In this document: piece after piece, positions 1 to 13,929 of the stretch
How the letters are laid out: each line of letters begins with the position of its first letter
How positions within the stretch are numbered: the stretch's first letter is position 1
Source: a virus
Lineage: Duplodnaviria > Heunggongvirae > Uroviricota > Caudoviricetes
Strand: one strand, 5' to 3'
Length of the DNA stretch: 14,754 nt
Virus record (IMG/VR): IMGVR_UViG_2660238499_000008
The notes under the pieces: model-generated
The model's input: the letters and a program-made list of their open reading frames with translations, nothing else
What the model was told of the DNA's origin: nothing
Databases searched by the model: none
Made by a program: the position numbers and the translations under genes

Positions 1-1260
1 ATGCCAAAACTCACAGACATGCAGATCCGCGCATGGATAAAGGCCGGGGAGCGATTCGAGGGACGCTCTGACGGTAACGGGCTTTATCTTTCATACCGCG
101 AAAACTACCAGACCCCCGTCTGGCGATTCCGCTATAAATTCGCAGGGAAACCCCGCGCCATGCTGATTGGCTCATATGCCGAGCTATCACTATCAAAGGC
201 CAGAGAGACAGCCAAAGAGCTATCGGCTCGCGTTGCGCTGGGCTATGACGTTGCAGGAGAGAAGCAGAAGCGCAAAACCGAAGCACTGGCGAAGATGGAA
301 GCAGAGAAGAACGCTATGCGCGTTTCAGAGCTTGCCGCTGAATACTTTGAGCGTCAGATCCTCCCGCGCTGGAAGCACCCCGATATACTCCGCCGCCGTA
401 TCGACAAAGATATAAACCCATGCATTGGCAGCATGAAGGTAGAGGGCGTGAAACCGCGCCATATCGATGACATGCTGAAAGGTATTGTTGACCGTGGAGC
501 GCCGACCATAGCAACGGACGTGCTGAGATGGACGCGCCGCATATTCGACTACGGAATCAAACGGCACGCGCTGGAGATTAACCCATGTTCAGCCTTTGAG
601 GTGGCAGACGCCGGAGGGAAAGAAGTTGCCCGTGACCGCTGGTTAACCCGCGATGAGTTAATCCAGCTATTCAAAGCCATGCGCACGGCTAAGGGATTCA
701 GTCGCCAGAACGAAATCACGTTCAAATTACTGTTAGCGTTATGCGTCCGCAAAATGGAGTTATGCGCCGCCCGCTGGGAGGAGTTCGATTTTGATAAAGC
801 CGTATGGCATTTACCAGAGGAACGCAGCAAAAACGGCGACGCTATAGACATTCCATTAGCACCGCCAGCCGTCGAATGGCTGAGAGAGCTTAAAACGTTC
901 TCATGCAACAGCGCATGGGTACTGCCAGCCAGAAAGATGCAAAACCGCATGATCCCCCATATTCAGGAAAGCACCCTGCCCGTAGCACTGGCTAAGGTTC
1001 GCGCCGAAATGCCGGACGTGCCGAATTTCACGATTCACGACTTCCGACGCACGGCCCGCACCCATTTAGCAGCGCTGGGCGTTGATCCGGTAGTGGCTGA
1101 AAGATGCCTTAATCACAAAATTAAAGGCGTGGAGGGTATCTATAACCGTCACCAGTATTTTGATGAGCGTAAAGCGGCGCTGGCGCAGTGGTGTGATTTG
1201 CTGGTGGCACTGGAGAGCGGTGAAGATTACAACGTCACGCCGATAAAAAAGGCTAATTAA
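1..1260 (+). CDS. int: Tyrosine recombinase / integrase, P4 / CP4-57 (IntA) type
   Basis: 419-aa ORF. N-terminal arm-binding-like region (MPKLTDMQIRAWIK...GLYLSYREN...WRFRYKFAGK) typical of P4-family integrases. C-terminal catalytic region with H-x-x-R (FTIHDFRRTART) and candidate catalytic Tyr near the C-terminus (GIYNRHQYF). ORF begins exactly at window position 1, so promoter and attL are not visible. Confidence 0.93.
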   Translation: MPKLTDMQIRAWIKAGERFEGRSDGNGLYLSYRENYQTPVWRFRYKFAGKPRAMLIGSYAELSLSKARETAKELSARVALGYDVAGEKQKRKTEALAKMEAEKNAMRVSELAAEYFERQILPRWKHPDILRRRIDKDINPCIGSMKVEGVKPRHIDDMLKGIVDRGAPTIATDVLRWTRRIFDYGIKRHALEINPCSAFEVADAGGKEVARDRWLTRDELIQLFKAMRTAKGFSRQNEITFKLLLALCVRKMELCAARWEEFDFDKAVWHLPEERSKNGDAIDIPLAPPAVEWLRELKTFSCNSAWVLPARKMQNRMIPHIQESTLPVALAKVRAEMPDVPNFTIHDFRRTARTHLAALGVDPVVAERCLNHKIKGVEGIYNRHQYFDERKAALAQWCDLLVALESGEDYNVTPIKKAN

Positions 1261-1354
1261 CCGAACAGATTGAGCCTAGCCCGACGGGGCGAAAAGTGGG
1301 AAGCCTTACCGCCTGGCTCAATTCTTTTTAAGGCAAAGCGTAGAAGGTGACGCA

Positions 1355-2188
1355 ATGGCATTACCAAAAAGGAAATATTACTCGCTTGAAAAAGCAGCGA
1401 AAGAATTGGAATGTGATGTTGATGATTTGCTTCATTATGCATCTTTAGGAATTCTACAGATTTGTGTCTACATAGAAATAAATGAAGATGAGGGCCTCTC
1501 CGAATGCTTCATAGACTCTGATGTTGACGATGAATTACTCGAATCTCTTAGCAGTGATGTTGATCCAACTCCATTAAGATGGGCTACTGAGTTAAATTAT
1601 ATAGTAGAAGATGCAGGGTTTTTCCTTTTGTCGAGAAGAGATGATGATTGTGATTCAAAGATAAACTCAGCAGGGGGATTTTTTGCGCTCAATCATACTG
1701 AGCTATCTACTCCAAAATTTGAAAAAGATAGAAAAATCGAAGTTTTTTCTCTTGGGCACTTGAGAGAGCATTATCACATTGTCAGTGGCAATCAATTTGG
1801 CGGAAGCACGCCAGGATATGAGCCGGGAAGCATTCTTTTTTACAAGCCACGAAAATTCGAAATTCATGACTTTTGCATCACATTGCCTGAGCTAGAGTTA
1901 TTGAAAAAAGGCGGAGAAAATCTACTTCATTCTGCATTTGGTTATAATCACCGTTCCTCTGAACTAATCGGTAGGAAAAAAGAAAATTTCTCAAAGCATA
2001 AAGCTTCCCTAATCAGATCTCTCACTGAACTGGCTTTTGTAAAGGATGGCGGGATTTCAAAACTTTCAATGGAATCAATAGCGGATCAATTACAACGAAA
2101 ATTTATGGACGCAGAGATAGATTATGATGATTTAAGTCCTTCAAATTTAAGGAATTGGTTAGGTACTGGCAGAAAGGATAAAATTTAA
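1355..2188 (+). CDS. Hypothetical protein, AT-rich cargo gene; possible N-terminal HTH, acidic linker, C-terminal domain of unknown function
   Basis: 277-aa ORF with purine-rich RBS (gaaggtga) about 6 nt before the ATG. Visibly AT-rich and different in codon usage from flanking GC-rich genes. N-terminus (YSLEKAAKELECDVDDLLHYASLGILQ) loosely resembles excisionase/AlpA-type HTH (inference only). Long acidic stretch (DSDVDDELLESLSSDVD, RRDDDCD). No recognisable catalytic motif. Confidence 0.65.
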   Translation: MALPKRKYYSLEKAAKELECDVDDLLHYASLGILQICVYIEINEDEGLSECFIDSDVDDELLESLSSDVDPTPLRWATELNYIVEDAGFFLLSRRDDDCDSKINSAGGFFALNHTELSTPKFEKDRKIEVFSLGHLREHYHIVSGNQFGGSTPGYEPGSILFYKPRKFEIHDFCITLPELELLKKGGENLLHSAFGYNHRSSELIGRKKENFSKHKASLIRSLTELAFVKDGGISKLSMESIADQLQRKFMDAEIDYDDLSPSNLRNWLGTGRKDKI

Positions 2189-2203
2189 AACTTTCAAAGT
2201 TTT
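2187..2203. promoter_or_regulatory. 17-bp perfect palindrome AAAACTTTCAAAGTTTT upstream of alpA (operator-like dyad or weak hairpin)
   Basis: Perfect dyad symmetry read directly from the sequence; overlaps the stop codon of the preceding gene and lies about 85 bp upstream of the alpA start. A partial repeat (cgaaagttt) follows at about 2213-2221. Function not demonstrable from sequence. Confidence 0.3.
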
Positions 2204-2287
2204 AAATGCTTATCGAAAGTTTGCTTTGGTTTATGCCTCAATTTTTTAATCATACCCGTAACAACGCAGAAAGGAGTTACGGGAAGC

Positions 2288-2491
2288 ATGAGCACAGAAA
2301 CTATTCCTACCAGCGGCTATATCCGCCGCTTTCGTTTAGCGAGCCATCTTGGCGTCCACGTCACAACAGTAGATCGCTGGGTCCGCGAGAAACGCATTCC
2401 AGCACCCGTCAAATTGGGTGAGAAGATTACCGCCTTTGATGCGGTAGAGATTAACAACTGGCTGGCAGAGCGTCGGGGAAAGGTGGCGTAA
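2288..2491 (+). CDS. alpA: AlpA-family phage transcriptional regulator (HTH)
   Basis: 67-aa ORF with good RBS (aaaggag). Sequence RFRLASHLGVHVTTVDRWVREKRIPAPVKLGEKITAFDAVEINNWLAERRG matches the AlpA / prophage CP4-57 regulator pattern (HTH followed by PxPVKLG and W-acidic C-terminus). Confidence 0.88.
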   Translation: MSTETIPTSGYIRRFRLASHLGVHVTTVDRWVREKRIPAPVKLGEKITAFDAVEINNWLAERRGKVA

Positions 2492-2928
2492 TGGGAAAGA
2501 AAAACCGCCCCGGACAGCAGGCGGCTAACAACATAGATATTCGCGGATCTGATGTTACGCCGACCACCAGCCCGGTACAAGTACCTAAGCGAACCCCAAA
2601 GAAACACCGCGCCCGCGTCTATATGCTGCGTACTGGCGTAGAGGGATGGACAGAAAACGACATTCTGCGCTACTGCCGTCTTTCATCCGGGCGTAATTAT
2701 GCGTCTGAACTGGAGCGCCAGCTTGATATTCAGCTTGAGCGTATAGACGAAAAGAACCCCGACGGGATCGGGTCACATTTACGCTATCGCTTTACCGGGC
2801 GCGGTGACGTTCTAAAAGTTATTCAGCTTGTGAACCACAACGCCACCGCTGGTGGCTATAACGGGCTTTCTAAGCAGGATATCGCGGACATTCTCAATCT
2901 ATACCCGGACAATCTCACCGCCGGCTAA
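2491..2928 (+). CDS. Hypothetical protein with basic, low-complexity N-terminus
   Basis: 145-aa ORF whose ATG overlaps the alpA stop (TAATG), suggesting translational coupling. No family recognised. Confidence 0.6.
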   Translation: MGKKNRPGQQAANNIDIRGSDVTPTTSPVQVPKRTPKKHRARVYMLRTGVEGWTENDILRYCRLSSGRNYASELERQLDIQLERIDEKNPDGIGSHLRYRFTGRGDVLKVIQLVNHNATAGGYNGLSKQDIADILNLYPDNLTAG

Positions 2929-2940
2929 CGGAGACTGAAA

Positions 2941-3774
2941 ATGAACATCGAAAAAAGCAGATTAATTTCTGAGGCCGCCCCTCATCTGAACGCCTATCAG
3001 GGCACAATTAACGGTAATGAATTTGCCGCAATTGTCCCGGTTATTCCTGGTCATATCGGTGGGCGTGAAACCAATATTGTTAGCGCAAAAGCGTTACACA
3101 AAGCGTTGGGCGTGGGAAAAGACTTCTCTACATGGATCACTGATCGCATCTCTGAATATGACTTCACCATTGGGCACGATTACTCAGTCCATAAAACAAT
3201 TTCCCCAAATCTGGGGAAAAGCCCGAATGGCGCGGCTTACAGCAAGATTAAACAGTCTGGCAGACCCGGCAAAGACTATCTGTTAAGTGTCGGAATGGCG
3301 AAAGAACTGGCAATGATCGAACGCACCGAACAGGGCCGCGCTATCCGCCGTTATTTCATCCAGTGCGAGGAAGAATTACAGCGTAGCGTGCCTGAAATCG
3401 CCGCCCGCTATCGTCGCCAGCTAAAAGCCCGTATCAGTGCCGCCAACCTGTTTAAACCGATGTGCGTAGCGCTGGAAAGCGCCCGCGCAGAACAGGGTAA
3501 ACAGACGCAGGCTCGCCACTACAGCAACGAGAGCAACATGATCGCCCGTATCGTGCTGGGTGGCATGACGGCGAAGCAGTGGGCGCAGGCAAATGGCATT
3601 ACTGGCGAACCACGGGACAGCATGAACGCAGCACAGCTTGAACACCTCGCCTATCTCGAAAGCACCAATATCACGTTAATTGATATGGGTATGGGATATG
3701 ACCTGCGTAAAGCCGAGCTAATCCGCCTCTCTCAGCGCTGGTTAGCTAAACATCTGGGGGCTAATCATGCTTAA
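2941..3774 (+). CDS. Phage antirepressor, AntA-like N-terminal domain plus KilA-C (ANT) C-terminal domain
   Basis: 277-aa ORF, RBS ggag 6-7 nt upstream. N-terminal segment (NIVSAKALHKALGVGKDFSTWITDRISEYDFTIGHDY) resembles the AntA domain. Central segment (GRPGKDYLLSVGMAKELAMIERTEQGRAIRRYFIQCEEEL) resembles the KilA-C antirepressor domain. Confidence 0.82.
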   Translation: MNIEKSRLISEAAPHLNAYQGTINGNEFAAIVPVIPGHIGGRETNIVSAKALHKALGVGKDFSTWITDRISEYDFTIGHDYSVHKTISPNLGKSPNGAAYSKIKQSGRPGKDYLLSVGMAKELAMIERTEQGRAIRRYFIQCEEELQRSVPEIAARYRRQLKARISAANLFKPMCVALESARAEQGKQTQARHYSNESNMIARIVLGGMTAKQWAQANGITGEPRDSMNAAQLEHLAYLESTNITLIDMGMGYDLRKAELIRLSQRWLAKHLGANHA

Positions 3775-3945
3775 TGCCGCCATCCAGAATAAAGCCTTTC
3801 CCCTGGCTGGCCTGATGTATGCAAATGTTAACGTCTGGAGCAAAGCAGCCCGCCGCCAGATTGCGACAAATAGCGACGTTTGGAACCTGTCAAAACCTGA
3901 CATTTGCCACCGCCAGATCTTTACAAATCTTGGTGTTTTCGGGAC

Positions 3946-4176
3946 AAGTACGCACGCGCATGAATGCGAAGCTGGCATAACAGTGCCAGCTAATGCCATC
4001 TCCTCATTTTCTCGTCGTGGTGACGAGGAGAGTTTCGAGACCAGTACGCGCACGAAGATTTATTGGGGGTCACTACGCGAGGAAGATTTTCCCATCATCA
4101 CTACACGAGGCGGGAAGATTTTTCTGACATCACCACTAGATGCAGGGAATTTATGCAACAGTACGCGCACGCGCGA
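3946..4176. repeat. Repeat-rich, probably non-coding region: three direct copies of GTACGCRCRCG and three degenerate tandem ~30-bp units (GAAGATTT...TCACTACRCGAGG)
   Basis: GTACGC(A/G)C(A/G)CG at 3948-3959, 4044-4054 and 4161-4175. Tandem ~30-bp units at about 4052-4082, 4081-4110 and 4113-4142. A GC-stem/UUCG-loop hairpin at about 4388-4407 followed by a U-rich tract. The 311-aa ORF the track draws across this region has low-complexity, non-protein-like composition. Confidence 0.5.
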
Positions 4177-4510
4177 AGGTGAGTTTCTGGAGTCCATAAA
4201 AAAGGGCTTGCCGACTATCGCCAACCCGGTTTATGGTTATAGCGCACCAGCAAAATCTGGTGTCGGGATTGGAACCCCGAACACACTAAGGGCGACACAG
4301 ACGCCGAAAGCGTCTTTTTTTGTGTCCATTCACTACGCACATCAAATCAGCGGACTTACCCGTACTGTATCAATGGTGGCGTTAGTGGGGCTACGTTCGC
4401 GTAGGCCGGTTTCCTTTGTGTCCGGTAGTTCCAACCCTGCTAACGTCACCGCCACTATTAAGATTGGAACCTTATGCGGTGACTCCTTAAACACAAAGGA
4501 GGCTGCCATA

Positions 4511-4702
4511 ATGGCTACTACCCCTACCCAAAAACCGCAATTTATCTGGATTATCGCAGCAGTTCGCCGCGATATGCCGACAATTACCGCCAAAATTCAC
4601 CATATCGCCGCAGAGACTGAGCAGGAAGCCCGCCGCATTCTGGCGCGGGATCACGTTTGCTTTTTTGCCGGACGTATTCGCACAGGGGGCGCACATGCTT
4701 AA
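4511..4702 (+). CDS. Small protein, possibly host cell-division-inhibitor Icd-like
   Basis: 63-aa reading frame (MATTPTQKPQFIWIIAAVRRD...ARRILARDHVCFFAGRI) with its own strong RBS (aggagg 8 nt before ATG at 4511), embedded at the 3' end of the long track ORF 3767-4702. The Icd-like assignment is from recalled similarity to small proteins of P4-like prophages and is not verified. Confidence 0.45.
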   Translation: MATTPTQKPQFIWIIAAVRRDMPTITAKIHHIAAETEQEARRILARDHVCFFAGRIRTGGAHA

Positions 4703-4874
4703 TTACTTCCGTGTTGCAGGATGCGCCACCGCCCGGAGCGGCGAATTAGTCGAGTTCGTTTATATCGTTGACGCCCGCAGCGCGATCAGCGCCAAAGCTG
4801 AGGCGCTAAATCAGGCCAGAAATGAACGCCTTTCCCACATCCAGATTACCCGCATTCGTGAGGTGGCGGCATGA
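4695..4874 (+). CDS. Hypothetical small protein
   Basis: 59 aa from ATG at 4695 (track shows an upstream TTG at 4665). The ATG overlaps the stop of the previous gene (ATGCTTAA); G-rich RBS upstream. Start choice uncertain. Confidence 0.4.
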   Translation: MLNYFRVAGCATARSGELVEFVYIVDARSAISAKAEALNQARNERLSHIQITRIREVAA

Positions 4875-5185
4875 GCATGTATAACGATTTAGTGTCCTGC
4901 AACTTTGATGGTTGTACACCTGATGATCTGAACGGAATTGAGAGCTGCGCCAGTGATGCCGTGGATGATTTAATGCTGGGCGTAAGTGCCATTGGTAGCC
5001 TCATGTTCTGGGCGGCTGGTAGCGATGGCTACCCGGAGGAAAGCGCTAAGGCTGATATGTACAGATTAGGCGCAATGCTGGGACATATCGGAGAAGTTGC
5101 GCGGGCGCTGAACGATAGCGCTGCAAACGCCGCATTCTTGCGCTCAATCAGTGAAAAAGAAGCCAAAGGGAGGGCGGGCAAATGA
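4871..5185 (+). CDS. Hypothetical protein
   Basis: 104-aa ORF; ATGA start/stop overlap with the upstream gene; same strand and operon context. Confidence 0.55.
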   Translation: MSMYNDLVSCNFDGCTPDDLNGIESCASDAVDDLMLGVSAIGSLMFWAAGSDGYPEESAKADMYRLGAMLGHIGEVARALNDSAANAAFLRSISEKEAKGRAGK

Positions 5186-5445
5186 ACAGAACTACCATCT
5201 ATCGCCACCCGGCAGAGCTGGAAGCCGAAGCGATGCTATCTCGCAAAGAAGCATACCCGGATGATTTTACGCTGGCAGACCGAACAGCAGAACGCATGAC
5301 CCGCGCCCGCAATGGGCTGGCTCACGTTATGACCGATTTATTACCACTCCTCGAAGTTGAGCAAGCAGCCATCGCGTATTGCTGGCTGAGTAAAGTCCTG
5401 ACGATTGTCGATATAGCCAGAATTGATGCGGAGGGCAGCGCATGA
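5182..5445 (+). CDS. Hypothetical protein
   Basis: 87-aa ORF; ATGA start/stop overlap with the upstream gene. Confidence 0.55.
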   Translation: MNRTTIYRHPAELEAEAMLSRKEAYPDDFTLADRTAERMTRARNGLAHVMTDLLPLLEVEQAAIAYCWLSKVLTIVDIARIDAEGSA

Positions 5446-6068
5446 GCAACGCACCGACCATTAAATCTGGAAATGCCGACTTATTACACGCAGAAGCCAC
5501 ACCGCACGGCGTAAACATCATGACCCGCAATGATGCCGGGATGTATGAGCATGTTGCTCTTATCAGCTACGAGAGCGCCGTGAACGGCCTTGACGCCGGA
5601 GAGTACGACGATAAGCCAGATATCGGATACGCCATTCATTTTGCCGTTGCTGATGGCGGGGCGCGTGGCTGGTTCGACTTCACCGCGCAGCATAACGTCA
5701 CTATGTGGCGCTGGCTGATTGCTGCGACGTTCATTTCTGAGATGAAGCGCGAAAACGGCACAACCACGGTAACTGAGTCTGACGGCACTTCATCGCAGGT
5801 GGCGATTTACTCCAATGGCACGGCGGGGATTGTGGTTTACCCGTTCGCGGAACGTCTGGCGATGGCTAACAACATGGAGGGCGCAATGATTGAGCGATAC
5901 GGCGTCGAACAGGGTACGGAAAAAGCCATTGTTTTTTATCAGGCCATGATCGACACGGAGCGCGGCGAGTTGACCCCGTTCGGGCGTGAAACGCTTGCTG
6001 AACTTCACAACAGCTTTATAGCTGAACTGGATGAAAACGGCTGGCCTGAAATGCCGCTGCCGCACTGA
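5442..6068 (+). CDS. Hypothetical protein
   Basis: 208-aa ORF; ATGA overlap with the upstream gene; no motif recognised. Confidence 0.6.
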   Translation: MSNAPTIKSGNADLLHAEATPHGVNIMTRNDAGMYEHVALISYESAVNGLDAGEYDDKPDIGYAIHFAVADGGARGWFDFTAQHNVTMWRWLIAATFISEMKRENGTTTVTESDGTSSQVAIYSNGTAGIVVYPFAERLAMANNMEGAMIERYGVEQGTEKAIVFYQAMIDTERGELTPFGRETLAELHNSFIAELDENGWPEMPLPH

Positions 6069-6077
6069 GGGGGCGAC

Positions 6078-6419
6078 ATGATTACTAAAAATTTCCGACT
6101 GAATGCGCTGGCGAATAAGTATGCGTCGGCACTGTATAACCACATTACCTCCACCAGCGGCGGTGACTATTTCATGGTTGATGCGGACGGCCTCGCCGTC
6201 CGTGTGGAAATCGTCAATGGAGTAAAAGGCTTTCGCAGCCTGATCGATAGCTACACACTGGCAGCCATGAAAGTGTCCTACCCGCAGTGGGAAACCGTGG
6301 GGATCGCGCTTCTTGAGCGTTGCGTCACTAAGGACGGATTAACTGACGTCGGGCGCGAGATATGGCAAAGCATGGTTAAAGACATGGGCGCGACCGTGGC
6401 AGGGGGCAACCATGCGTAA
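6078..6419 (+). CDS. Hypothetical protein
   Basis: 113-aa ORF with strong RBS (gaggggg); its stop overlaps the primase start (ATGCGTAA). Confidence 0.6.
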   Translation: MITKNFRLNALANKYASALYNHITSTSGGDYFMVDADGLAVRVEIVNGVKGFRSLIDSYTLAAMKVSYPQWETVGIALLERCVTKDGLTDVGREIWQSMVKDMGATVAGGNHA

Positions 6420-9177
6420 TATCGATCTTATCCGCGAAGTGACCAGTGCCGCCGCCGGGCGCTGGCCTTATGTGCTGGCTGGATTGTCTATCGACGTGCC
6501 TGATTCATCGCGCCGCCATTCTCCATGCCCTGCATGTGGTGGAAAAGACCGTTTCAGATTCGACGACAACGGGCGCGGTAGCTTTATCTGCAATCAGTGT
6601 GGCGCTGGTGACGGTTTAGACCTGATTAAGAAGGTGAACAACTGCGACACTACGGAGGCGGCACAGCTTGCCGCTGATGTGCTGGGTATTGATTACCGGG
6701 CAGCGCAAACCGACCCGGTGGCAGCGAGCCATAGAAGAGAGCAACTGGAAGCTGACCGCCAGCAGCGTGAGCAGGAGCGCCAGAAACAGGCAGCAGAGGA
6801 TGCAGAGCAGCGAAGGGCTACGTTTGCCCGTCTGTATGCCGGAATGCGCCAGAGTGCCACACAGGGAGAATCTGATTACCTGCAATCAAAAGGGCTGACC
6901 GGGTTTAACTATCCGGTTATGCCGGATGGTTCGTTATTGCTGGAGCTGGTGGACGAATCCGGCGCAGTGGCAGCAGCGCAAACCATTACACCGCAGGGAG
7001 AGAAGCGACTCCTGACAGGTTCAGCAAAGCGCGGGGCATATCACGCCGTAAACGCACCAGAACAGCCGCAGAGCGTATTAATTGCCGAGGGGCTGGCGAC
7101 GGCCCTGTCCGTTCACCTGATGCGCCCGGACGCGCTTACAGTGGCGGCAATTGACGCCGGGAACCTGATCCACGTTGCCGGAGTAATGCGCCGGAAACAC
7201 CCGCAGTCGCAAATTATCATTGCCGCAGATAACGACCACCAGCAGGACGAACAGGCGAACACGGGCAAAGATGCCGCAGAGAAAGCCGCCTTATCCGTGG
7301 CTGGCTGGGTGGCGCTGCCGCCGACAGACTACAAAGCCGACTGGGACGACTACCGCCAGCAAAACGGGCTGGAAGTCGCTACGGCTGCGTTTAACGATTC
7401 GATGTACCAGATTCAGGGGGAAGCCGTGAAACCGCGATTGCAAGCCATTGAGGGCGGTAAAACTGACCATCCAGAGAAAGACCCACTAAAACCCCACATT
7501 GAGAGCCGAAAAGATGGCGTTTTCTGGGTAACGCCGAAGGTGGACAAGGAAAGCGGGGAGATCATCAACGCTGAAAGCTGGTTATGTTCACCGCTGGAGG
7601 TTATCGGCACGGGACGCGACGACAAAGATCAGTATCTTATTATCTCATGGCTGGCATTTGGTGCAGGCATACCGACAACAGCGGCTATCCCGCTGGCTGA
7701 TATTGGCGAGCGTGAAGGCTGGCGCACCCTGAAAGCTGGTGGCGTCAACGTCACAACGAAAAACAGCCTACGGGCGATTCTTGCCGACTGGTTACAGCGA
7801 AGCGGCTCGCGTGAATTGTGGCGCGTTGCTCATGCTACAGGCTGGCAGTGCGGGGCATACATCATGCCGGACGGGGAAATCATCGGCACACCTGAGCGGC
7901 CTGTTTTGTTCAGCGGGCGCAGTTCAGCCGCTGCCGGGTATACCGTAGCAGGAACGTCGGAAAGCTGGCGTAACAGTGTTGCGCGGCTGGCATACGGTAA
8001 TTACGCGATGATGACAGGCATCGCCGCAGCACTGGCAGCGCCATTAATCGGGGTGGCAGATCGTGACGGATTCGGGATTCATTTTTATGAGCAATCGAGC
8101 GCCGGGAAAACAACCACGCAGAACGTGGCGAGCAGTCTATACGGCAACCCTGATGCCTTGCGCCTGACGTGGTACGGGACGGCGCTGGGGCTGATAAACG
8201 AGGCCGCCGCCCACAATGACGGGCTGATGCCACTGGATGAAGTCGGACAGGGCGCTGACCCGATAAGCGTTTCTCAGTCTGCCTATGCCCTGTTTAACGG
8301 CGTGGGGAAATTGCAGGGAGCAAAGGAAGGAGGCAACCGGGATCTGAAACGCTGGCGCACCGTGGCAATCAGCACCGGGGAAGTGGACTTAGAAACCTTC
8401 ATCGCCACCGCCGGACGCAAGACCAAAGCCGGGCAACTGGTGCGCTTGCTGAATATCCCGTTAAGTAAGGCGGTGCGCTTTCATGAACACCAGACAGGGA
8501 AAGAACACGCCGACGCGCTGAAAGATGCTTATCAGCACCATCATGGCGCTGCCGGGAGGGAGTGGATCAGATGGCTTTCAGACCACCAGCAACAGGCGAT
8601 TGATGTCGTTCGTGAGTGTGAAGCCCGCTGGCGCAGTCTAATCCCTGCCGACTATGGGGAACAGGTTCACCGTGTAGGGGCAAGATTTGCCATTCTGGAG
8701 GCCGCTTTACTGATGGGTGGCGTGGTTACTGGCTGGGATGCTCAAACGTGCCGGGATGCGATACAGCACGCCTATAACGCATGGCTAAAAGAGTTCGGCA
8801 CGGGGAACAAAGAGCACCAGCAGATCATCGAGCAGGCGGAGGCATTTTTAAATGCCTATGGCCTGAGTCGATTCGCGCCGCTGCCTTACGACCCCGCCAG
8901 CCTGCCGATTCATAATCTGGCTGGATACAGGCAGCGCGGAAATCATGACGATTCACCGATAACGTTTTACACGTTCCCCGACACTTTCGATAAGGATATT
9001 GCTAAGGGGTTTAACAGGCAGCAGGTGGCCCGCGTCCTGAAAGAATCGGGGATGCTTACCCCTTCAGCAGACGGAAAAAAATTTCAGAGGAAAAGCCCGC
9101 GCATTCAGGGGAGGCAGATTAACGTTTACGTTTTGCAATTCCTGCCGGATGGGGAGGAAAGCCAGCCAGGGCAATAA
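6412..9177 (+). CDS. Replicative primase-helicase (P4 alpha-like): N-terminal zinc ribbon, TOPRIM domain, C-terminal Walker-A/B NTPase
   Basis: 921-aa ORF. Zinc-ribbon CPACGG...FICNQCG near the N-terminus. TOPRIM-like acidic motifs (IAEGLATA; IIAADNDHQQDE). Walker A-like SSAGKTT and Walker B-like LMPLDEV in the C-terminal half. Immediately followed by an iteron array. Confidence 0.9.
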   Translation: MRNIDLIREVTSAAAGRWPYVLAGLSIDVPDSSRRHSPCPACGGKDRFRFDDNGRGSFICNQCGAGDGLDLIKKVNNCDTTEAAQLAADVLGIDYRAAQTDPVAASHRREQLEADRQQREQERQKQAAEDAEQRRATFARLYAGMRQSATQGESDYLQSKGLTGFNYPVMPDGSLLLELVDESGAVAAAQTITPQGEKRLLTGSAKRGAYHAVNAPEQPQSVLIAEGLATALSVHLMRPDALTVAAIDAGNLIHVAGVMRRKHPQSQIIIAADNDHQQDEQANTGKDAAEKAALSVAGWVALPPTDYKADWDDYRQQNGLEVATAAFNDSMYQIQGEAVKPRLQAIEGGKTDHPEKDPLKPHIESRKDGVFWVTPKVDKESGEIINAESWLCSPLEVIGTGRDDKDQYLIISWLAFGAGIPTTAAIPLADIGEREGWRTLKAGGVNVTTKNSLRAILADWLQRSGSRELWRVAHATGWQCGAYIMPDGEIIGTPERPVLFSGRSSAAAGYTVAGTSESWRNSVARLAYGNYAMMTGIAAALAAPLIGVADRDGFGIHFYEQSSAGKTTTQNVASSLYGNPDALRLTWYGTALGLINEAAAHNDGLMPLDEVGQGADPISVSQSAYALFNGVGKLQGAKEGGNRDLKRWRTVAISTGEVDLETFIATAGRKTKAGQLVRLLNIPLSKAVRFHEHQTGKEHADALKDAYQHHHGAAGREWIRWLSDHQQQAIDVVRECEARWRSLIPADYGEQVHRVGARFAILEAALLMGGVVTGWDAQTCRDAIQHAYNAWLKEFGTGNKEHQQIIEQAEAFLNAYGLSRFAPLPYDPASLPIHNLAGYRQRGNHDDSPITFYTFPDTFDKDIAKGFNRQQVARVLKESGMLTPSADGKKFQRKSPRIQGRQINVYVLQFLPDGEESQPGQ

Positions 9178-9201
9178 TCTTTTTCACGTGCGAGGTTTTT
9201 T

Positions 9202-9462
9202 GTGGTGGTTCAGGTGGTTCAGGTGGTTCAGTAAGTAATTGTTATTGATTTATAATGTTTTTTTGTAAGAAATTGAACCACCACTGAACCACCAAACGGG
9301 TATTTTGAACCACCAGAGAGAAACGGATTATTTTCACTGGCTGGCAGTGAACCACCAAGAAGGGCGACTGAACCACCAGATAAATTTAAAAGGTGGTTCA
9401 GCAAAACCCAGAGTTGGCGCGGCCTAGAGGGGTACTGAACCACCTGAACCACCTGAACCACC
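9202..9462. repeat. Iteron-type origin of replication: 12 copies of the 8-bp core GGTGGTTC / GAACCACC
   Basis: Three tandem 9-bp units GTGGTTCAG at 9205-9231 (forward). AT-rich spacer at about 9232-9272. Six dispersed copies (9274-9282, 9284-9293, 9306-9314, 9347-9356, 9368-9377 reverse; 9392-9401 forward). Three tandem reverse units at 9436-9462, followed by a T-rich/AT tract. Position directly after the primase-helicase gene matches P4 ori/crr-type logic. Confidence 0.82.
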
Positions 9463-9566
9463 AACTTTTTTGTTTATATACCAATAAATCTGGCGAAGGT
9501 GTCCCACAATAAGACGGAGCCGGGTAATCTTCATTAGCAAAACTAATAATTCGAGGTATTCGCAAA

Positions 9567-10028
9567 ATGACAGCACAGATATCAGCCTACGGGCGTTTAG
9601 TCGCAGACCCCCAGACCCGCACCACAACGAACGGTGCAAGCATGGCAATGGGACGGTTAGCGGTGGCACTGCCCTGCCATGCAGCAGAGGGCGGAGAGGT
9701 TACTTTCTGGCTGGGCGTGGTGGCATTCGGCAAACAGGCCGACGCACTGGCAGGACACGTTAAAGGCGATTTAGTCAGTGTTGCCGGAGCGATGCAGATC
9801 AATCAGTGGACGGGCAAGGATGGCGGTACACAGCAAGGTTATCAGGTAGTGGCCGACAGCGTGATCAGCGCCAGAACGGTACGCCCCGGCGGGAAGCGGG
9901 CCGAATCAGTCAAAGCAAGCGGAGCCAGCAGGGGCCACACAACACAATCCGCGCCGGGATGGGAGTTATATAATACCCCTGATGATTTTGACCAACGCCC
10001 ACCATTCGACGATGAAACGCCATTCTGA
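9567..10028 (+). CDS. ssb: Single-stranded DNA-binding protein (SSB), OB-fold with acidic C-terminal tail
   Basis: 153-aa ORF. N-terminal half aligns by eye with bacterial SSB OB-fold (GRLVADPQTRTTTNG; WLGVVAFGKQADALAGHVKGDLVSVAGAMQINQWT). Gly/Ser-rich linker and C-terminal ...FDDETPF resembling the SSB D-D-D-I-P-F tail. Confidence 0.88.
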   Translation: MTAQISAYGRLVADPQTRTTTNGASMAMGRLAVALPCHAAEGGEVTFWLGVVAFGKQADALAGHVKGDLVSVAGAMQINQWTGKDGGTQQGYQVVADSVISARTVRPGGKRAESVKASGASRGHTTQSAPGWELYNTPDDFDQRPPFDDETPF

Positions 10029-10038
10029 GAGGGAAGAT

Positions 10039-10680
10039 ATGAGTACACAACCCACCATTATCGAGTTAGGCAGCTATCGCTGGCCCAGACATCTCGCAAT
10101 ACACGAAGCAGGTCATGCGATAGCCGCATGGTTTTTCGGCATACAGGAGGTAGAAATTGCGTTATCGGGTAATAACCGAGTGGCAAAAACCTACCTTAGC
10201 GGCGATGTTGATGAGTGTGGAGCCGTCGCGGTATGGCACGCCAACTATCCACGGAATGTGGCTGAGGTTAAGTCTTACACCCTCTCGAACGATGACGCCA
10301 GATTACGTCTGATAGACCAGGTATGCCGGGATATGGTTATCTCTCTGGCTGGTATCGTCGCGCAATCACGCTATACGGGGGATGATATTAACGCACTGAT
10401 GGAAACGTCCGGGAAAGCAGACATGAAAAATGTTCGTGATTTATCAGAGGTATACCGGGTGGCTGGTGGAGAGGATGCTGATATACAGAGAATATCACTT
10501 TCCCGTGCTGAGGCGCTGATTGCCCTGAAATGGTGGGATGTTATCGCGCTGGCGAAAATACTGGAGAACCGTAACCATATGCCTGCCAGAAACTTCCAGC
10601 GCATTATGGGTGATATTGACAAGCCTGTACCAAAGCCTATGACGCTGGCTGAACTGGATGAATTGGTGGGTGAAGAATGA
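10039..10680 (+). CDS. Putative zinc metallopeptidase (HExxH motif; ImmA/IrrE-like or FtsH-like HEAGH)
   Basis: 213-aa ORF from ATG at 10039 (RBS gagggaag). Motif LAIHEAGHAIAAW encoded at about 10093-10131 (HEAGH at 10102-10116). Family not resolved and third metal ligand not identified. Confidence 0.55.
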   Translation: MSTQPTIIELGSYRWPRHLAIHEAGHAIAAWFFGIQEVEIALSGNNRVAKTYLSGDVDECGAVAVWHANYPRNVAEVKSYTLSNDDARLRLIDQVCRDMVISLAGIVAQSRYTGDDINALMETSGKADMKNVRDLSEVYRVAGGEDADIQRISLSRAEALIALKWWDVIALAKILENRNHMPARNFQRIMGDIDKPVPKPMTLAELDELVGEE

Positions 10681-11027
10681 AGCCATACATTCTGGCAGCC
10701 GTCCTGATCTCATCGGCACCGGCACTATCTGCTATCCATTGTGGGGGCTTTACTATACAGCCAGACCGTTATCGGACAACGATTAACGGCGATGTGGTTC
10801 ATATTGTTGATGCGCAATTTTACGGCGCACCGCGAGACTTTAGCCAGGCCGCCATAAAGTTATTGCCGGATGCCATTACCACTACCGACAGGCAATACCG
10901 ACTGGAGACGCAGGGAAGCAATGCCTTGCTTGAGTTGATGACCAGAGAAAACCCGCCACGTGTGCTTAATCGTGAGCGCTGCGATGCCGGGCTAACAGGC
11001 TTTTACTGGTACTCGTCTGTGCCGTGA
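10677..11027 (+). CDS. Small exported protein with N-terminal signal peptide
   Basis: 116-aa ORF; start overlaps the stop of the HExxH gene (ATGA). N-terminus MKPYILAAVLISSAPALSA has a positive n-region, hydrophobic core and AxA-like cleavage site. Confidence 0.6.
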   Translation: MKPYILAAVLISSAPALSAIHCGGFTIQPDRYRTTINGDVVHIVDAQFYGAPRDFSQAAIKLLPDAITTTDRQYRLETQGSNALLELMTRENPPRVLNRERCDAGLTGFYWYSSVP

Positions 11028-11096
11028 GGTTCGCACCGAACGCAGGCTAAAATTCTAGACTGTTCTTGACAGATTTTAAACCCAAGTAGCGCTAAA

Positions 11097-11195
11097 CCCG
11101 CGCCAGCAGAGGGCTGGAAACCAGAGCGTGATTTAGGTCGTCCAGAATATTCTGGTTCGCGCCACTGGTACGCAGTACGCAGTCAGGTACGCAGC
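11097..11195 (+). promoter_or_regulatory. Regulatory module copy A: CTGGAAACCAG dyad, perfect 14-bp palindrome CCAGAATATTCTGG, and three GTACGCAG heptamer repeats
   Basis: CTGGAAACCAG at 11114-11124; CCAGAATATTCTGG at 11142-11155; (G)TACGCAG at 11168-11175, 11176-11182 and 11187-11194. About 50 bp upstream of the TerS-like gene. About 85 bp is recognisably duplicated at 11692-11776. Confidence 0.5.
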
Positions 11196-11241
11196 AAAAC
11201 CGCGCATTCAGTTAGGTTTTTTGCGCACAGTGAGCCGTTAA

Positions 11242-11619
11242 ATGAAAAAAAATAGCCAACAATCAAGATCCGGATGGGGTGGCAAGCGGAAAGGCGCAGG
11301 CGCACCGTTGGGCAATACTAATGCCGTCAAACATGGCGAACGCAGTAGGCGGGCATTCTTCCCGTTTGAGGGAGAAGATGCGCTTTCTCCGCTGGTGCGA
11401 AATCGTGCAAGAAACCTCATGATGGCTGAGAGATACGGGCTATTACTGGCGACTAATCCGACGCCGGGAACAGAAGAATGGCGCGAGATGACATTGATTA
11501 ACGGACTCATGGGGCTACATGCCGACAGAATCGCACGGCTTGAGCTGAGTTTAGCGAGATCCGTTTCAATGCAAGCAAGGCGGGATCTGCGAAGGGTTAA
11601 AAAAAACGGCGCATGTTAG
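11242..11619 (+). CDS. Small basic protein with GxPxGNxNAxKHG motif; possible terminase small-subunit-like / packaging-redirecting protein
   Basis: 125-aa ORF. N-terminus GGKRKGAGAPLGNTNAVKHGERS resembles a motif I associate with phage small-terminase-family proteins (recalled, not verified). No large terminase or capsid genes in the element. Confidence 0.5.
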   Translation: MKKNSQQSRSGWGGKRKGAGAPLGNTNAVKHGERSRRAFFPFEGEDALSPLVRNRARNLMMAERYGLLLATNPTPGTEEWREMTLINGLMGLHADRIARLELSLARSVSMQARRDLRRVKKNGAC

Positions 11620-11691
11620 CAATCCGTATAGTCACCGATGTTGAAATACTGGACTGTACTGGACAGACTCAAAGCCCATATGAAGAGAGAA

Positions 11692-11866
11692 CCGCGCCAG
11701 TAGCGGGCTGGAAGCCATATTCGATTTAGGCAGTCCAAAATATTCTGGCTCGCGCCATTGGTTCGCAGTGCGCAAAATAGTGCGCAATTTACAGTAAAAT
11801 ACGCATATTATTTCGCATTCATTTTTGCGCACCGTTCGCAGTTAATGCGCAGTAATTCGCAGGAGG
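11692..11866 (+). promoter_or_regulatory. Regulatory module copy B: diverged duplicate of module A, extended by an array of at least 8 TNCGCA(G) repeats and ending in a strong RBS
   Basis: 11692-11776 aligns by eye with 11097-11181 (roughly three-quarters identity), with the palindrome degenerated to CCAAAATATTCTGG at 11735-11748. Between 11761 and 11860 are repeated ttcgcag / tgcgcaa / ttgcgca / atgcgcag / attcgcag elements. AGGAGG at 11861-11866. Confidence 0.5.
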
Positions 11867-11873
11867 CCCGCCA

Positions 11874-12485
11874 GTGAGAGACAGAACGCGCAGCTATATC
11901 ACCGACCTGCCCCGTATAGGGTTGCCATTCCTTGCGAACATGCGTAGCAGGCTGGCGGACGCCGAACCGGGGACGCAGCTTTATACCCAGACCGAAAGCG
12001 GAACGTTGTATACCTTCCGGCAAGCCGACAGCTACGCCATGACAATCAACGGCGTTACACGGGCAATCAGAACCACGACCACACAAGCCGGGTATGGTGT
12101 GCGGGAATGGTACGTCTGTCCCCACTGCATAAAGCGGGTAGCGAAGCTGTATATCGGCAAAAAAGATATTGGCTGCCGGGGATGCTGGAAACTCCACTAT
12201 AAAAGCCAGAGCGCCGACAGACTGGACAGGATGCGAATGAAGATACGCCAGCAGCGATGCGCGATATGGGGAAGCAATGACCTTGCCAATAATCTGTTTA
12301 ATGACATTCGCATGTTCCCAAAACCAAAGGGGATGCGCTGGGCTACGTTTGACAGGAAGCGGGCAGAGTTATCAGTTATGGAGATGGCTTACTGGCAGGC
12401 ATTCAGTCCGGTAGTAGATAGAATCAGGGGCATGGTTGAGCGTAAGACGGGGAAAGCAGCCAGAGGCATTGGCCTGACTTTGTAA
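11874..12485 (+). CDS. Hypothetical protein with C4 zinc-ribbon (CPHC...CRGC)
   Basis: 203-aa ORF starting at GTG 11874, 7 nt after a perfect AGGAGG (alternative ATG at 11939). CxxC pairs CPHC and CRGC separated by 16 residues. Preceded by regulatory module B. A 6-bp stem hairpin follows the stop (about 12489-12505) but has no U-tract. Confidence 0.65.
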   Translation: MRDRTRSYITDLPRIGLPFLANMRSRLADAEPGTQLYTQTESGTLYTFRQADSYAMTINGVTRAIRTTTTQAGYGVREWYVCPHCIKRVAKLYIGKKDIGCRGCWKLHYKSQSADRLDRMRMKIRQQRCAIWGSNDLANNLFNDIRMFPKPKGMRWATFDRKRAELSVMEMAYWQAFSPVVDRIRGMVERKTGKAARGIGLTL

Positions 12486-12716
12486 AAGCAAAACGCCCGC
12501 ACGGGGCGTCAAGGAACGGGATAGACTTCTGCGACAATTTGCATTCGCCGCCAATATAGCAAGCCGTCCACATCAAGCAATAAACTATCACCGGGAGGGG
12601 GAGGCCAAATCTCTGCAACCCTGAGCCTTAAGGACTGCCCGCCCCATCGTTTTTTTATACCCGCGAAAAATGAAATTTAATCCGGGCGTGTTTCATCCTT
12701 CCAGAGGGTATGACGT

Positions 12717-12902
12717 ATGACACCACGCGAAATAGCCTTATTGACCATCGCCAAACTTGAGCACGGAGGCCACCAGCTTACACTGGCAGATCAACGGGAG
12801 ATAGAACGCTCAGTTAATGCCGATATAGCCCGGCGCGACAGGTTCCGCGAAATGATGCGAGCACCTGCCTACCAGTGGAAGAAGCCAGCGCCGCGCAGGT
12901 AG
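12717..12902 (+). CDS. Hypothetical small basic protein
   Basis: 61-aa ORF (MTPREIALLTIAKLEHGG...); weak RBS; preceded by a T7 run at about 12646-12652. No family recognised. Confidence 0.45.
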   Translation: MTPREIALLTIAKLEHGGHQLTLADQREIERSVNADIARRDRFREMMRAPAYQWKKPAPRR

Positions 12903-13134
12903 ATATGGGATTATTCCACATGTAACTATACGAGCAATCAGCCCATTAGCTGCCTGCGTGGGAAAGGCACCACCCCGGCGGAAAACTCAGGCGGCTTGCA
13001 TGGTTACAATGAATTGCTATTACAGGCCAGAGAGTCTGATAATCCTGAGCAGGCCGAGATCCACAATTTCCTGATGCTGGATATTGAACGCCGGGTTTAC
13101 GACCTGAGCCGCATCAACGGCAGATTGCAGGCTA

Positions 13135-13494
13135 TTAACTGACCCGCATGTATTCACCTGATATTGCGTTATCAGCGCCGCCATTATCGCGCACAACGGC
13201 ACATTGACCGGGTAAACCGTAGCGAACGACCGTTGCGTTAGTTTTACCGCCACGCTTTACCTGACGAGATTCATACACTGTCACACGTTCCAGCAGCCCC
13301 CCGGCAACCATGCTTTCAAGAGTTCGCCGGGTGGATTCGAGCGGGTGGCGCTTATCGAACGACACCATGCCATGAAGAAGGTAGGCCACGCCCGACACAT
13401 CGAACGGCGGCGCACCAATCTCACCTGTCACCCATTCGAGGTTATCCGGCTCAAAGTAGCTGAGTATCTCTTTTTTGCGGCTGGTCATTCTCAT
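13135..13494 (-). CDS. Hypothetical protein, convergent to the rest of the element; possible winged-helix-like segment
   Basis: 119-aa ORF, the only convincing minus-strand gene. RBS aaggaa upstream of the ATG. Segment HPLESTRRTLESMVAGGLLERV is reminiscent of a recognition helix/wing, which is speculative. Confidence 0.5.
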   Translation of the reverse strand: MRMTSRKKEILSYFEPDNLEWVTGEIGAPPFDVSGVAYLLHGMVSFDKRHPLESTRRTLESMVAGGLLERVTVYESRQVKRGGKTNATVVRYGLPGQCAVVRDNGGADNAISGEYMRVS

Positions 13495-13742
13495 GGCTGG
13501 CTGATTCCTTATTGTGGGATAGCGGTATCATACAATAAGGCGCAAAAGATAAGAGGCCAGAACAGCAAGCATGAGAGCATAAAATGAGCAGCCAAAGACA
13601 GCACCTCAAAATACCGTGTACACAAGGGTGTACCTACTTAGAAAACGCATTACAAGGAATCCAGTAACCACGCGGCCTAGAGACTCCTACTCAATAAACA
13701 GATTCAGACTCGTAACGCCAATTCTTACTTTTCAGCCTTCAC

Positions 13743-13778
13743 AAATGCCGCCCACTCAAACAGAGCGGCATTTTTCTT
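13743..13778 (+). terminator. Putative intrinsic terminator (8-bp stem AATGCCGC/GCGGCATT, about 13-nt loop, then TTTTTCTT)
   Basis: Inverted repeat 13744-13751 / 13765-13772 followed directly by a T-run. Lies about 150 bp upstream of dinD; the loop is larger than typical, so confidence is moderate. Confidence 0.45.
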
Positions 13779-13868
13779 CCCCGCAACTTTCAATTCTGTT
13801 TTGCGTGCCTGCTCCAGATTTTGCGATGTCTTTTTGCCCAGCACACTGAGAACGTGAGACACTCACAA

Positions 13869-13884
13869 CTGTATATAAATACAG
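13869..13884 (+). promoter_or_regulatory. LexA operator (SOS box) CTGTATATAAATACAG of dinD
   Basis: Perfect CTGT-N8-ACAG match to the LexA consensus with an AT-rich centre, 46 bp upstream of the dinD start codon. Confidence 0.88.
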
Positions 13885-13929
13885 TTACAGATTTACTTTC
13901 TTTGCAATCGATATCACATGGAGTGGGCA

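Follow-up and report, generated by a model that had tools for sequence, protein, structure and literature searches.

The stretch of viral DNA recorded in IMG/VR as IMGVR_UViG_2660238499_000008 (hereafter the window, meaning the whole 14,754 nt that were analysed) raises the question of which kind of element it carries and by which route such an element could be packaged. Searches of Pfam, PHROGs and NCBIfam gave no match in it to a capsid, tail, portal, terminase or lysis family. The preliminary description of the window, made from its letters only, had proposed a helper-dependent satellite devoid of capsid, tail, portal and large-terminase genes rather than an autonomous prophage, and this view was upheld by the synteny with EcCIMP1, a phage-inducible chromosomal island (PICI) of Escherichia coli MP1, by the host genes found on both sides and by the presence of a cos site of helper type. 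Our best explanation, to which we assign a probability of about 0.7, is that the window holds a Gram-negative PICI of the EcCIMP1-like lineage, 13,908 bp long, integrated in the end of yicC and packaged through a helper-type cos site. Islands of this kind are known; the main new point is the SfV-type cos, which is also carried by EcCIMP1 and by several hundred related islands.

The cos site lies at 12593-12680 on the plus strand, in a non-coding region between orf203 and orf61 along which the phage matches extend to 12690, and was assigned to the SfV/SfI/SfII/SfIV/ST64B/phiP27 type by blastn comparison with phage termini and with an annotated cos site. The phages matched over this segment (SfII, SfV, SfIV, ST64B, phiP27, 118970_sal3 and 720R4) showed identities of 78-95%, with E-values down to 1e-20. 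In their genomes, the matched segment corresponds to the intergenic region running from an HNH endonuclease gene to the gene for a P27-family small terminase subunit (TerS), after which come the genes for the large subunit (TerL) and the portal, in agreement with the terS, terL, portal order described around this segment (PMC3851460). The cohesive end of SfI, determined experimentally, is the 10-mer 5'-TGCCCGCCCC-3' (PMC3636060); the same cosN sequence, TGCCCGCCCC, occurs once in the window, at 12636-12645, against a chance expectation of 0.04. Furthermore, 49 nt (12632-12680) are 100% identical to the left end of SfV, to 720R4 and to the islands EcCIMP1 (where this core occupies positions 3157-3205 of locus L004), ECONIH4 and O111 08-4455. 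The similarity to phages ends at the flanking phage genes, the cos region alone having been kept, and orf61 is found directly downstream of cos, in the place held by terS in the phages. The lambda cosN (GGGCGGCGACCT), also considered, gave chance-level matches only.

Among 5426 complete E. coli genomes, 338 contain the unit composed of cos and orf61, which is not confined to a single integration site; in the same set, the integrase was present in 366 genomes and SfV-type prophages with cos and terS in 1108, and the cos region was retained at an identity of at least 95% in about 300. Since only the intergenic cos is kept, without the flanking phage genes, and is conserved in such a number of genomes, selection on cos function is suggested. 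None of the proteins of the window resembled the TerS of SfV or P27, the HNH protein or RppA, and no homologue of a terminase, Rpp, capsid or HNH protein is encoded. Because the cos site holds the SfI cohesive end along with 49 nt identical to SfV, packaging by phages of the SfV/SfI/SfII type, through their HNH endonuclease and P27-family TerS, appears to be the most likely route, and the most economical model would be a direct recognition and cutting of the island cos by the helper terminase and HNH endonuclease. A scan of IMG/VR for the satellite-specific cos-orf61 junction returned 7 contigs which, by their identifiers, look like proviruses of isolate genomes and thus give no evidence of encapsidation. 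In the literature that was searched, no paper was found that links PICIs to an SfV-type cos or to yicC.

The window starts, at position 1, with the ATG of the integrase gene and ends, at 14754, with the stop codon of dinD. The body of the element covers 1-13708 and the remainder, including attL, lies upstream of position 1, so that the earlier equation of the whole window with the element held for this body, to which an attL 209 nt upstream has to be added and from which the host DNA at 13709-14754 has to be taken away. The attL core was seen at window-equivalent position -209 in contig L012 (GCA_001484475.1), which is 100% identical to positions 1-11260 of the window and in which the end of yicC lies 190 nt upstream of int, with the exact integrase protein encoded next to yicC. 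Further left in this contig are the ordinary chromosomal genes rph, pyrE, slmA, dut and coaBC; virion genes adjoining the element outside the window, which had been named as a reason to abandon the satellite view, were sought in this contig and none was found, only chromosomal genes from yicC to coaBC.

The alignment with the yicC-dinD region of K-12 that had been advised was run and gave attR, while the direct repeat upstream of int was seen in contig L012. The attR core, CAGATTCAGA, is located at 13699-13708 on the plus strand and repeats the yicC 3' end in direct orientation, as established from alignments with the K-12 attB and with the relatives; the right end had been set at 13700, which was nearly exact. 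This 10-bp repeat stands at both attL and attR, and the distance between the two cores, 13,908 bp, is the length of the element. The attB site corresponds to the last ~21 bp of yicC (CAGATTCAGAACATCGAATAA), of which copies are present at both junctions when K-12 is aligned with them: at attL, yicC is completed by a synonymous 3' end that the element brings with it, and the original fragment has been moved to attR. K-12 represents the empty site, with a yicC-dinD spacing of 220 bp, and the relatives in the complete E. coli genomes S43, D5 and ECONIH4 are also found between yicC and dinD. Because the end of yicC is duplicated at the junctions, the element is inserted in the yicC 3' end and the dinD promoter, which the right junction had been said to abut, is only its downstream neighbour. 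The window contains no tRNA gene. A repeat of GTGTACAC/GGTGTAC at 13614-13635, near attR, is likely an integrase arm site.

The gene content is that of a Gram-negative PICI as described by Fillol-Salom et al. (2018): int stands at one end, co-oriented with alpA; the primase gene is followed by an iteron-type origin; the size falls within about 10-20 kb, structural and lysis genes are absent and host genes lie at both ends; and a specific att site with a direct repeat is used, which is empty in K-12. From the same description, an interference or packaging module (a capsid morphogenesis gene, Rpp or TerS) was not found by comparison with the EcCICFT073 capsid and decoration homologues and RppA and with the TerS of SfV and P27. 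Among relatives, helper-phage induction has been shown for EcCIMP1 and EcCICFT073. Nearly all long open reading frames (ORFs) are on the plus strand, orf119 being the only minus-strand gene of the element, and the modules succeed one another from integration, through AntA ('Bro'), to replication and late genes. The integrase, AlpA, antirepressor, primase-helicase, single-stranded DNA-binding protein (SSB) and iteron origin listed in the preliminary description were all recovered by family or repeat searches.

The integrase gene (1-1260, plus strand) encodes a P4-family tyrosine integrase with the Pfam domains Arm-DNA-bind_3, Phage_int_M and Phage_integrase (phrog_1). It is followed on the same strand by the gene for an AlpA-family helix-turn-helix regulator (2288-2491; Pfam Phage_AlpA at 26.7 bits for a cut-off of 21, and HTH_17), presumed to be the activator of the island operon, a role that has been shown for AlpA in EcCICFT073 (PMC6092414) and in EcCIMP1 (PMC11773190). 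Next come orf145 (2491-2928, plus strand), a conserved gene of the family with 90% identity to its S43 counterpart, and the gene for an AntA/AntB antirepressor-family protein (2941-3774, plus strand; Pfam AntA, 2e-21; phrog_5817), which constitutes the 'Bro zone' of Gram-negative PICIs. An operon of orf69, orf104, orf87, orf208 and orf113 (4665-6419, plus strand), belonging to uncharacterised PHROG families, leads into the gene for a primase-helicase of 921 aa (6412-9177, plus strand) with Zn_Ribbon_Prim, Toprim_3 and DUF927 domains (phrog_1139, 3e-176). The gap after the primase gene is filled by the iteron replication origin (9203-9464), in which a repeat search found 12 copies of GGTGGTTCAG, of which 4 read forward and 8 in reverse, and which includes 31-nt perfect inverted arms. 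The SSB (9567-10028, plus strand; Pfam SSB, phrog_44) has an acidic C-terminal tip, DDETPF. The coexistence of an SSB, an antirepressor and a metallopeptidase had been regarded as unusual; since an SSB gene follows the origin in EcCICFT073, and AntA and/or SSB are present in EcCIMP1, S43, D5 and ECONIH4, the first two are ordinary for E. coli PICIs, and of that set only the M41-like peptidase stands out, as real accessory cargo.

The membership in the EcCIMP1-like lineage is indicated by the block alpA-orf145-antA-isrK/C4-icd-...-DUF927 primase and by the right end cos-orf61-...-orf119, with identities to the EcCIMP1 proteins of 75% for orf145, 88% for AntA, 83% for Icd, 65% for orf208, 94% for orf113, 79% for the primase-helicase, 98% for orf61 and 94% for orf119. 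In SatelliteFinder, a PICI of Type A or B has at least 4 of 5 core components (PMC10085698). Of these components, general libraries recognised only int, alpA and primase in the window, and by analogy with EcCIMP1, scored as 'Type C #var01' by its authors (PMC11773190), the element is probably a 'Type C' PICI. The hallmarks of capsid-forming PICIs (cfPICIs), namely capsid, portal, protease, head-tail adaptors and terL, gave no match in Pfam or PHROGs.

Some of the same genes could bring to mind other classes of elements. A P4-like satellite exploiting a P2-type helper would have in common with the island, in outline, an integrase of the P4 family, an AlpA/Vis-like protein, an immunity based on antisense RNA and a primase of Zn-ribbon/Toprim type; however, the psu, sid, delta and epsilon families were unmatched in Pfam and PHROGs, the helicase domain is DUF927, no P2/P4 cos was found within 3 mismatches and the cos present is of SfV type, which makes this identification highly improbable and agrees with the earlier statement that the element is not a canonical P4. 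Equally improbable are a conjugatively transferred integrative mobilisable element (PIME-like) and the remnant of a defective prophage: int, alpA and a replicase also belong to the PIME core (bioRxiv 10.64898/2026.01.12.698999), but Pfam and NCBIfam scans gave no relaxase, TraJ, TrbJ or TrbL (no search for an oriT was made), a phage cos site is present, and in the hundreds of genomes that share this organisation structural genes are invariably lacking.

Several points weigh against the assignment of the window to a functional, cos-packaged PICI. Relatives of the D5 type, which are common and occupy the same yicC site, do not have the SfV-type cos. The filling of a helper-sized head by dimers or trimers of the island is deduced from sizes alone, by analogy with the packaging limits of lambda: at 13.9 kb the island would make up about one third of the genomes of helper-type phages (35-43 kb), three copies amounting to 41.7 kb, sizes that are compatible with the proposed packaging. 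The only helper demonstrated for EcCIMP1 is Kapi1, a P22-like headful phage and not an SfV-type cos phage (PMC11773190). The displaced yicC fragment at attR (13690-13710) lacks 11 nt, a deletion that may remove one core-binding site of the integrase and impair excision. Lastly, a pRiA4b ORF-3 family gene is truncated, which indicates some decay.

As the D5-type islands are without the SfV-type cos, packaging signals differ within the family. An alternative cos in these relatives was looked for, and the intergenic segment that replaces it (L002 16810-17010) matched no phage record. The D5-type islands also retain only a remnant of orf203.

The Kapi1 finding allows for a functional PICI with the helper and packaging of EcCIMP1, that is a P22-like headful phage, with the SfV-type cos being a relic of recombination or serving another role. 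Kapi1 does induce and transduce EcCIMP1, which bears the same cos segment; excision of EcCIMP1 occurs only with Kapi1, and its transduction depends on int and alpA (PMC11773190). On the other hand, the transfer by Kapi1 is very low (~5e3 particles per ml), the packaging is left unexplained by the authors, and a Kapi1-like prophage is present in just 2 of 21 EcCIMP1 strains (PMC11773190). Moreover, the P22-like ejection-protein genes of EcCIMP1 are missing from the window, and the well-conserved cos region (at least 95% identity in about 300 genomes), kept without the adjoining phage genes, speaks for its function being under selection. We therefore regard the Kapi1-type route as decidedly unlikely for the island of the window. 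It may be noted that an SfV-type cos phage could be the efficient packaging helper of EcCIMP1 as well.

The two signs of damage have to be judged together with a different possibility, according to which the element would be a decaying and immobilised relic, incapable of excision or transfer and inherited only vertically. The 11-nt deletion at the attR junction and the truncated pRiA4b ORF-3 gene speak for it, as does the existence of deletion variants of the same element. The truncated gene is left as a remnant at 12930-13139 on the plus strand, detected at 98.6% identity when the intact protein of D5 was used as a tblastn query; its first 110 codons are lost and residues 111-180 are left, and the gene is intact in D5, ECONIH4 and EcCIMP1. 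The deletion variants (L014, 2825-3376, and L015, 9021-9572) have identical int, orf277 and alpA, and in both a deletion joins orf145 to the region preceding the primase, with antA, isrK/C4, icd and the small ORFs gone. Against decay, the core genes int, alpA, antA, pri and ssb are all intact ORFs, the iterons and cos are undamaged, and the 10-bp direct repeat is still present. Deletions at attR beginning at the same nucleotide were observed in independent relatives (0 nt in D5, 2 in S43, 11 in the window and 12 in ECONIH4; junctions of the relatives at L001 19583-19603, L002 ~19277 and L008 ~16540), and 'attR damage' of variable length is described as peculiar to PICI integrases, with reports only from tRNA genes (PMC10111431). 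Because the variable deletions of the relatives match this 'attR damage' better than random decay, the 11-nt deletion was not taken as proof of decay, and we hold the relic to be rather unlikely. A precise excision would leave an altered yicC 3' end. The site is of interest in itself, yicC being a protein-coding PICI attachment site with the 'attR damage' pattern.

Both the RNA genes and the cos site, the most informative features of the window, were missing from the preliminary description. An int-alpA RNA motif (RF02996) was found downstream of int at 1269-1334 on the plus strand, with 61.8 bits for a gathering score of 35.8. Between antA and the replication operon lie an isrK-type small RNA (RF01394; 4244-4320, plus strand; 76 bits for a gathering score of 50), which overlaps a c4-a1b1 target element (RF03163; 4231-4283; 43.5 bits) and is closed by a terminator at 4299-4315 detected in a terminator scan, and a C4 antisense RNA of the P1 immI type (RF01695; 4369-4456, plus strand; 81.3 bits for a gathering score of 45). 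They are followed by the gene for an Icd-like small protein of ~63 aa (4512-4702, plus strand; phrog_1743 and phrog_6928). The 311-aa ORF after antA (3767-4702), earlier taken as a gene, consists mostly of the isrK and C4 RNA genes ahead of icd, and its Pfam Phage_ASH match (ORF residues 157-256, nt 4235-4534) falls on these two RNA genes; where RefSeq annotates relatives with long 'Ash' or 'Icd-like' ORFs, these are probably translated RNA genes.

Two loops of C4 can pair with nearby sequence: the loop at 4412-4421 with 4491-4500, a segment overlapping the icd Shine-Dalgarno sequence (the icd ATG being at 4512), and the loop at 4428-4434 with TTGGAAC, present at positions 4269 and 4464. These pairings suggest an antisense repression of icd by C4, as in the immI arrangement of phage P1 (c4-icd-ant), and polarity could extend this repression to the downstream replication operon. 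The resemblance to P1 immI comprises the C4 RNA, the a1/b1-type targets upstream, a target over the icd ribosome-binding site and icd itself; the arrangement differs in that the antirepressor gene is upstream of c4/icd in the window and downstream in P1, and in that a replication operon comes after icd in the window. The replication genes of the island are located downstream of this P1-like antisense-RNA switch.

A possible course of events can be drawn from these elements. The helper phage would turn on alpA, and AlpA would then activate the long rightward operon; until induction, the C4 RNA would cover the icd ribosome-binding site and dampen the replication genes downstream. The island would excise and replicate, its origin being served by the primase-helicase and SSB that it encodes itself. 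The HNH endonuclease and the P27-family TerS/TerL terminase of the helper would next recognise and cut the island cos, such recognition being expected because the helper site has the same cosN and the same flank toward terS. The island would finally be packaged as dimers or trimers in helper-sized heads, making a protein for capsid remodelling or for redirecting the terminase needless.

Accessory or hijacking functions may be ascribed to the remaining genes of the element, orf277, the M41-like peptidase, orf116, orf125 and orf203. In the slot between int and alpA, orf277 (1355-2188, plus strand) has a low GC content (38-43%), no family match in Pfam, PHROGs, NCBIfam or PADLOC and just 4 homologues among 5.8 billion proteins; relatives carry unrelated genes of 280-320 aa in this slot, one of them annotated DUF6387, so that it looks like a hotspot for variable cargo or defence. 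No defence system was matched by PADLOC inside the element. Following the SSB gene, a stand-alone FtsH-like (M41) metallopeptidase domain with a HEAGH motif and without an AAA module is encoded at 10039-10680 on the plus strand. Its AlphaFold model (pLDDT 81) matched FtsH/AFG3L2 protease domains in all but two of the top 48 PDB matches (best E 3e-3, TM ~0.5), and in 17 homologues the E-A-G-H of the zinc motif is invariant and its first H nearly so; the model and this conservation support its identification as a metallopeptidase. The adjacent orf116 (10677-11027, plus strand) has a hydrophobic, signal-like N-terminus and no family match.

The protein that had been called TerS-like is the product of orf125 (11242-11619, plus strand), in which a conserved basic motif at the N-terminus precedes a helical body. 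Its similarity to the NCBIfam TerS model NF040601 amounted to 19 bits over a motif of 25 residues for a cut-off of 120. The AlphaFold model (pLDDT 77, all helical) had no significant match in PDB or in BFVD/viral structure sets, a PDB sequence search with the single protein and with a 44-sequence profile gave no match, and there was no similarity to the TerS of SfV or P27, to the HNH protein or to RppA. The 108 homologues found across Enterobacterales, as far as they are named, are all hypothetical proteins. The family has the conserved motif QSRSGWGGKRxGAGAPxGNTNAVKHGERS. Its members recur in int-alpA-primase islands of Klebsiella, Dickeya, Serratia, Salmonella and others, close to the right end (for instance at L025 9001-9381 and L027 9001-9360); in Dickeya the homologues are near the right end of PICI-like int-alpA-DUF927 islands, and in a PICI-like island of Klebsiella the homologue adjoins PerC and DUF2280 genes. 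With a hit confined to the motif, no fold match and no resemblance to SfV/P27 TerS, the assignment as TerS was discarded; orf125 is therefore a satellite-associated gene and not a demonstrable TerS, and remains a candidate for a hijacking function.

The cos site is preceded by orf203 (11874-12485, plus strand), with a CxxC...CxxC motif and no significant match, and by a hairpin terminator after it (12492-12510; terminator scan). Downstream of cos is the conserved small gene orf61 (12717-12902, plus strand), which was considered as a phage-derived packaging protein and discarded, tblastn giving no match in 50,697 phage records. At the right end, orf119 (13135-13494, minus strand) has the same 94% identity to its counterparts in S43 and ECONIH4 as in EcCIMP1.

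Outside the element, the host DNA at 13709-14754 comprises the dinD promoter, with an exact match to a LexA box at 13869-13884 on the plus strand, and a divergent allele of dinD (13918-14754, plus strand) encoding a Bro-N domain. The DinD protein of the window has 84.5% amino acid identity to that of K-12 and 99.6% to the chromosomal copies of D5 and ECONIH4. It matches the PADLOC candidate defence family PDC-S13, and a second dinD paralogue is found inside the D5-type islands, adjoining attR (L002 18341-19165). There is a possibility that dinD itself is satellite-derived cargo.

A wider proposal, which we advance tentatively and at somewhat less than even odds, is that the EcCIMP1-like 'Type C' PICIs form a minimalist lineage of cos satellites, without terminase, Rpp or capsid remodelling, that are packaged as multimers through an exact cos of the SfV/SfI/SfII/ST64B/phiP27 type. 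Classifiers leave this lineage, common as it is, as uncertain 'Type C' because no packaging module is recognisable in it; if the proposal is true, SatelliteFinder's unclassified 'Type C' elements, more than 6000 in number, would include functional satellites, and the inducing phage (such as Kapi1 for EcCIMP1) and the efficient packaging phage could be different ones. The helper-type cos also names candidate helpers, the SfV-type prophages present in ~20% of E. coli genomes, which include Shigella serotype-converting phages, and it could explain, in a way open to testing, why Kapi1 transfers EcCIMP1 at such a low level.

The island can finally be compared with the known satellites. In cos-type Staphylococcus aureus pathogenicity islands (SaPIs) such as SaPIbov5, the satellite reportedly bears the cos of its helper and depends on the HNH endonuclease and terminase of the latter. 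As in the window, such an island is about one third of the helper genome; the SaPIs differ in being Gram-positive and in having the Stl repressor, and SaPIbov5 encodes Ccm, a capsid homologue making small heads, whereas no such gene was found in the window. A functional analogy only is proposed with the PICMI of Vibrio, minimalist satellites in which a reduced gene content without capsid-remodelling genes goes with concatemers in helper-sized capsids (PMC10803314); hosts are different, and the helpers of PICMI are virulent.

The prototype Gram-negative PICI, EcCICFT073 (PMC6092414, PMC6739421), shares with the window int, alpA, an icd-like gene, small ORFs, primase, origin and SSB, as well as the lack of terS, and is itself packaged via cos by a cos helper. 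The homology is however distant (25% for Int, 36% for Icd and 51% for SSB), and the window lacks RppA and the homologues of a capsid protein and of a decoration protein that EcCICFT073 carries. Its RppA redirects lambda-type TerS to a divergent cosB (PMC6092414, PMC6739421), whereas the cos flank in the window is identical to that of the helper.

The closest system is EcCIMP1 (PMC11773190). The two islands differ in their integrases, 28% identical, and in their sites, tRNA-Thr for EcCIMP1 and yicC for the element of the window; after the origin, EcCIMP1 carries P22-like ejection-protein genes and PerC where the window has the SSB, the M41-like peptidase, orf116, orf125 and orf203, and orf277 between int and alpA belongs to the window only. 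They are alike in gene order and in encoding homologous proteins, both over the stretch between alpA and the primase and at the right end, in the isrK/C4 region and in the identical 49-nt cos core.

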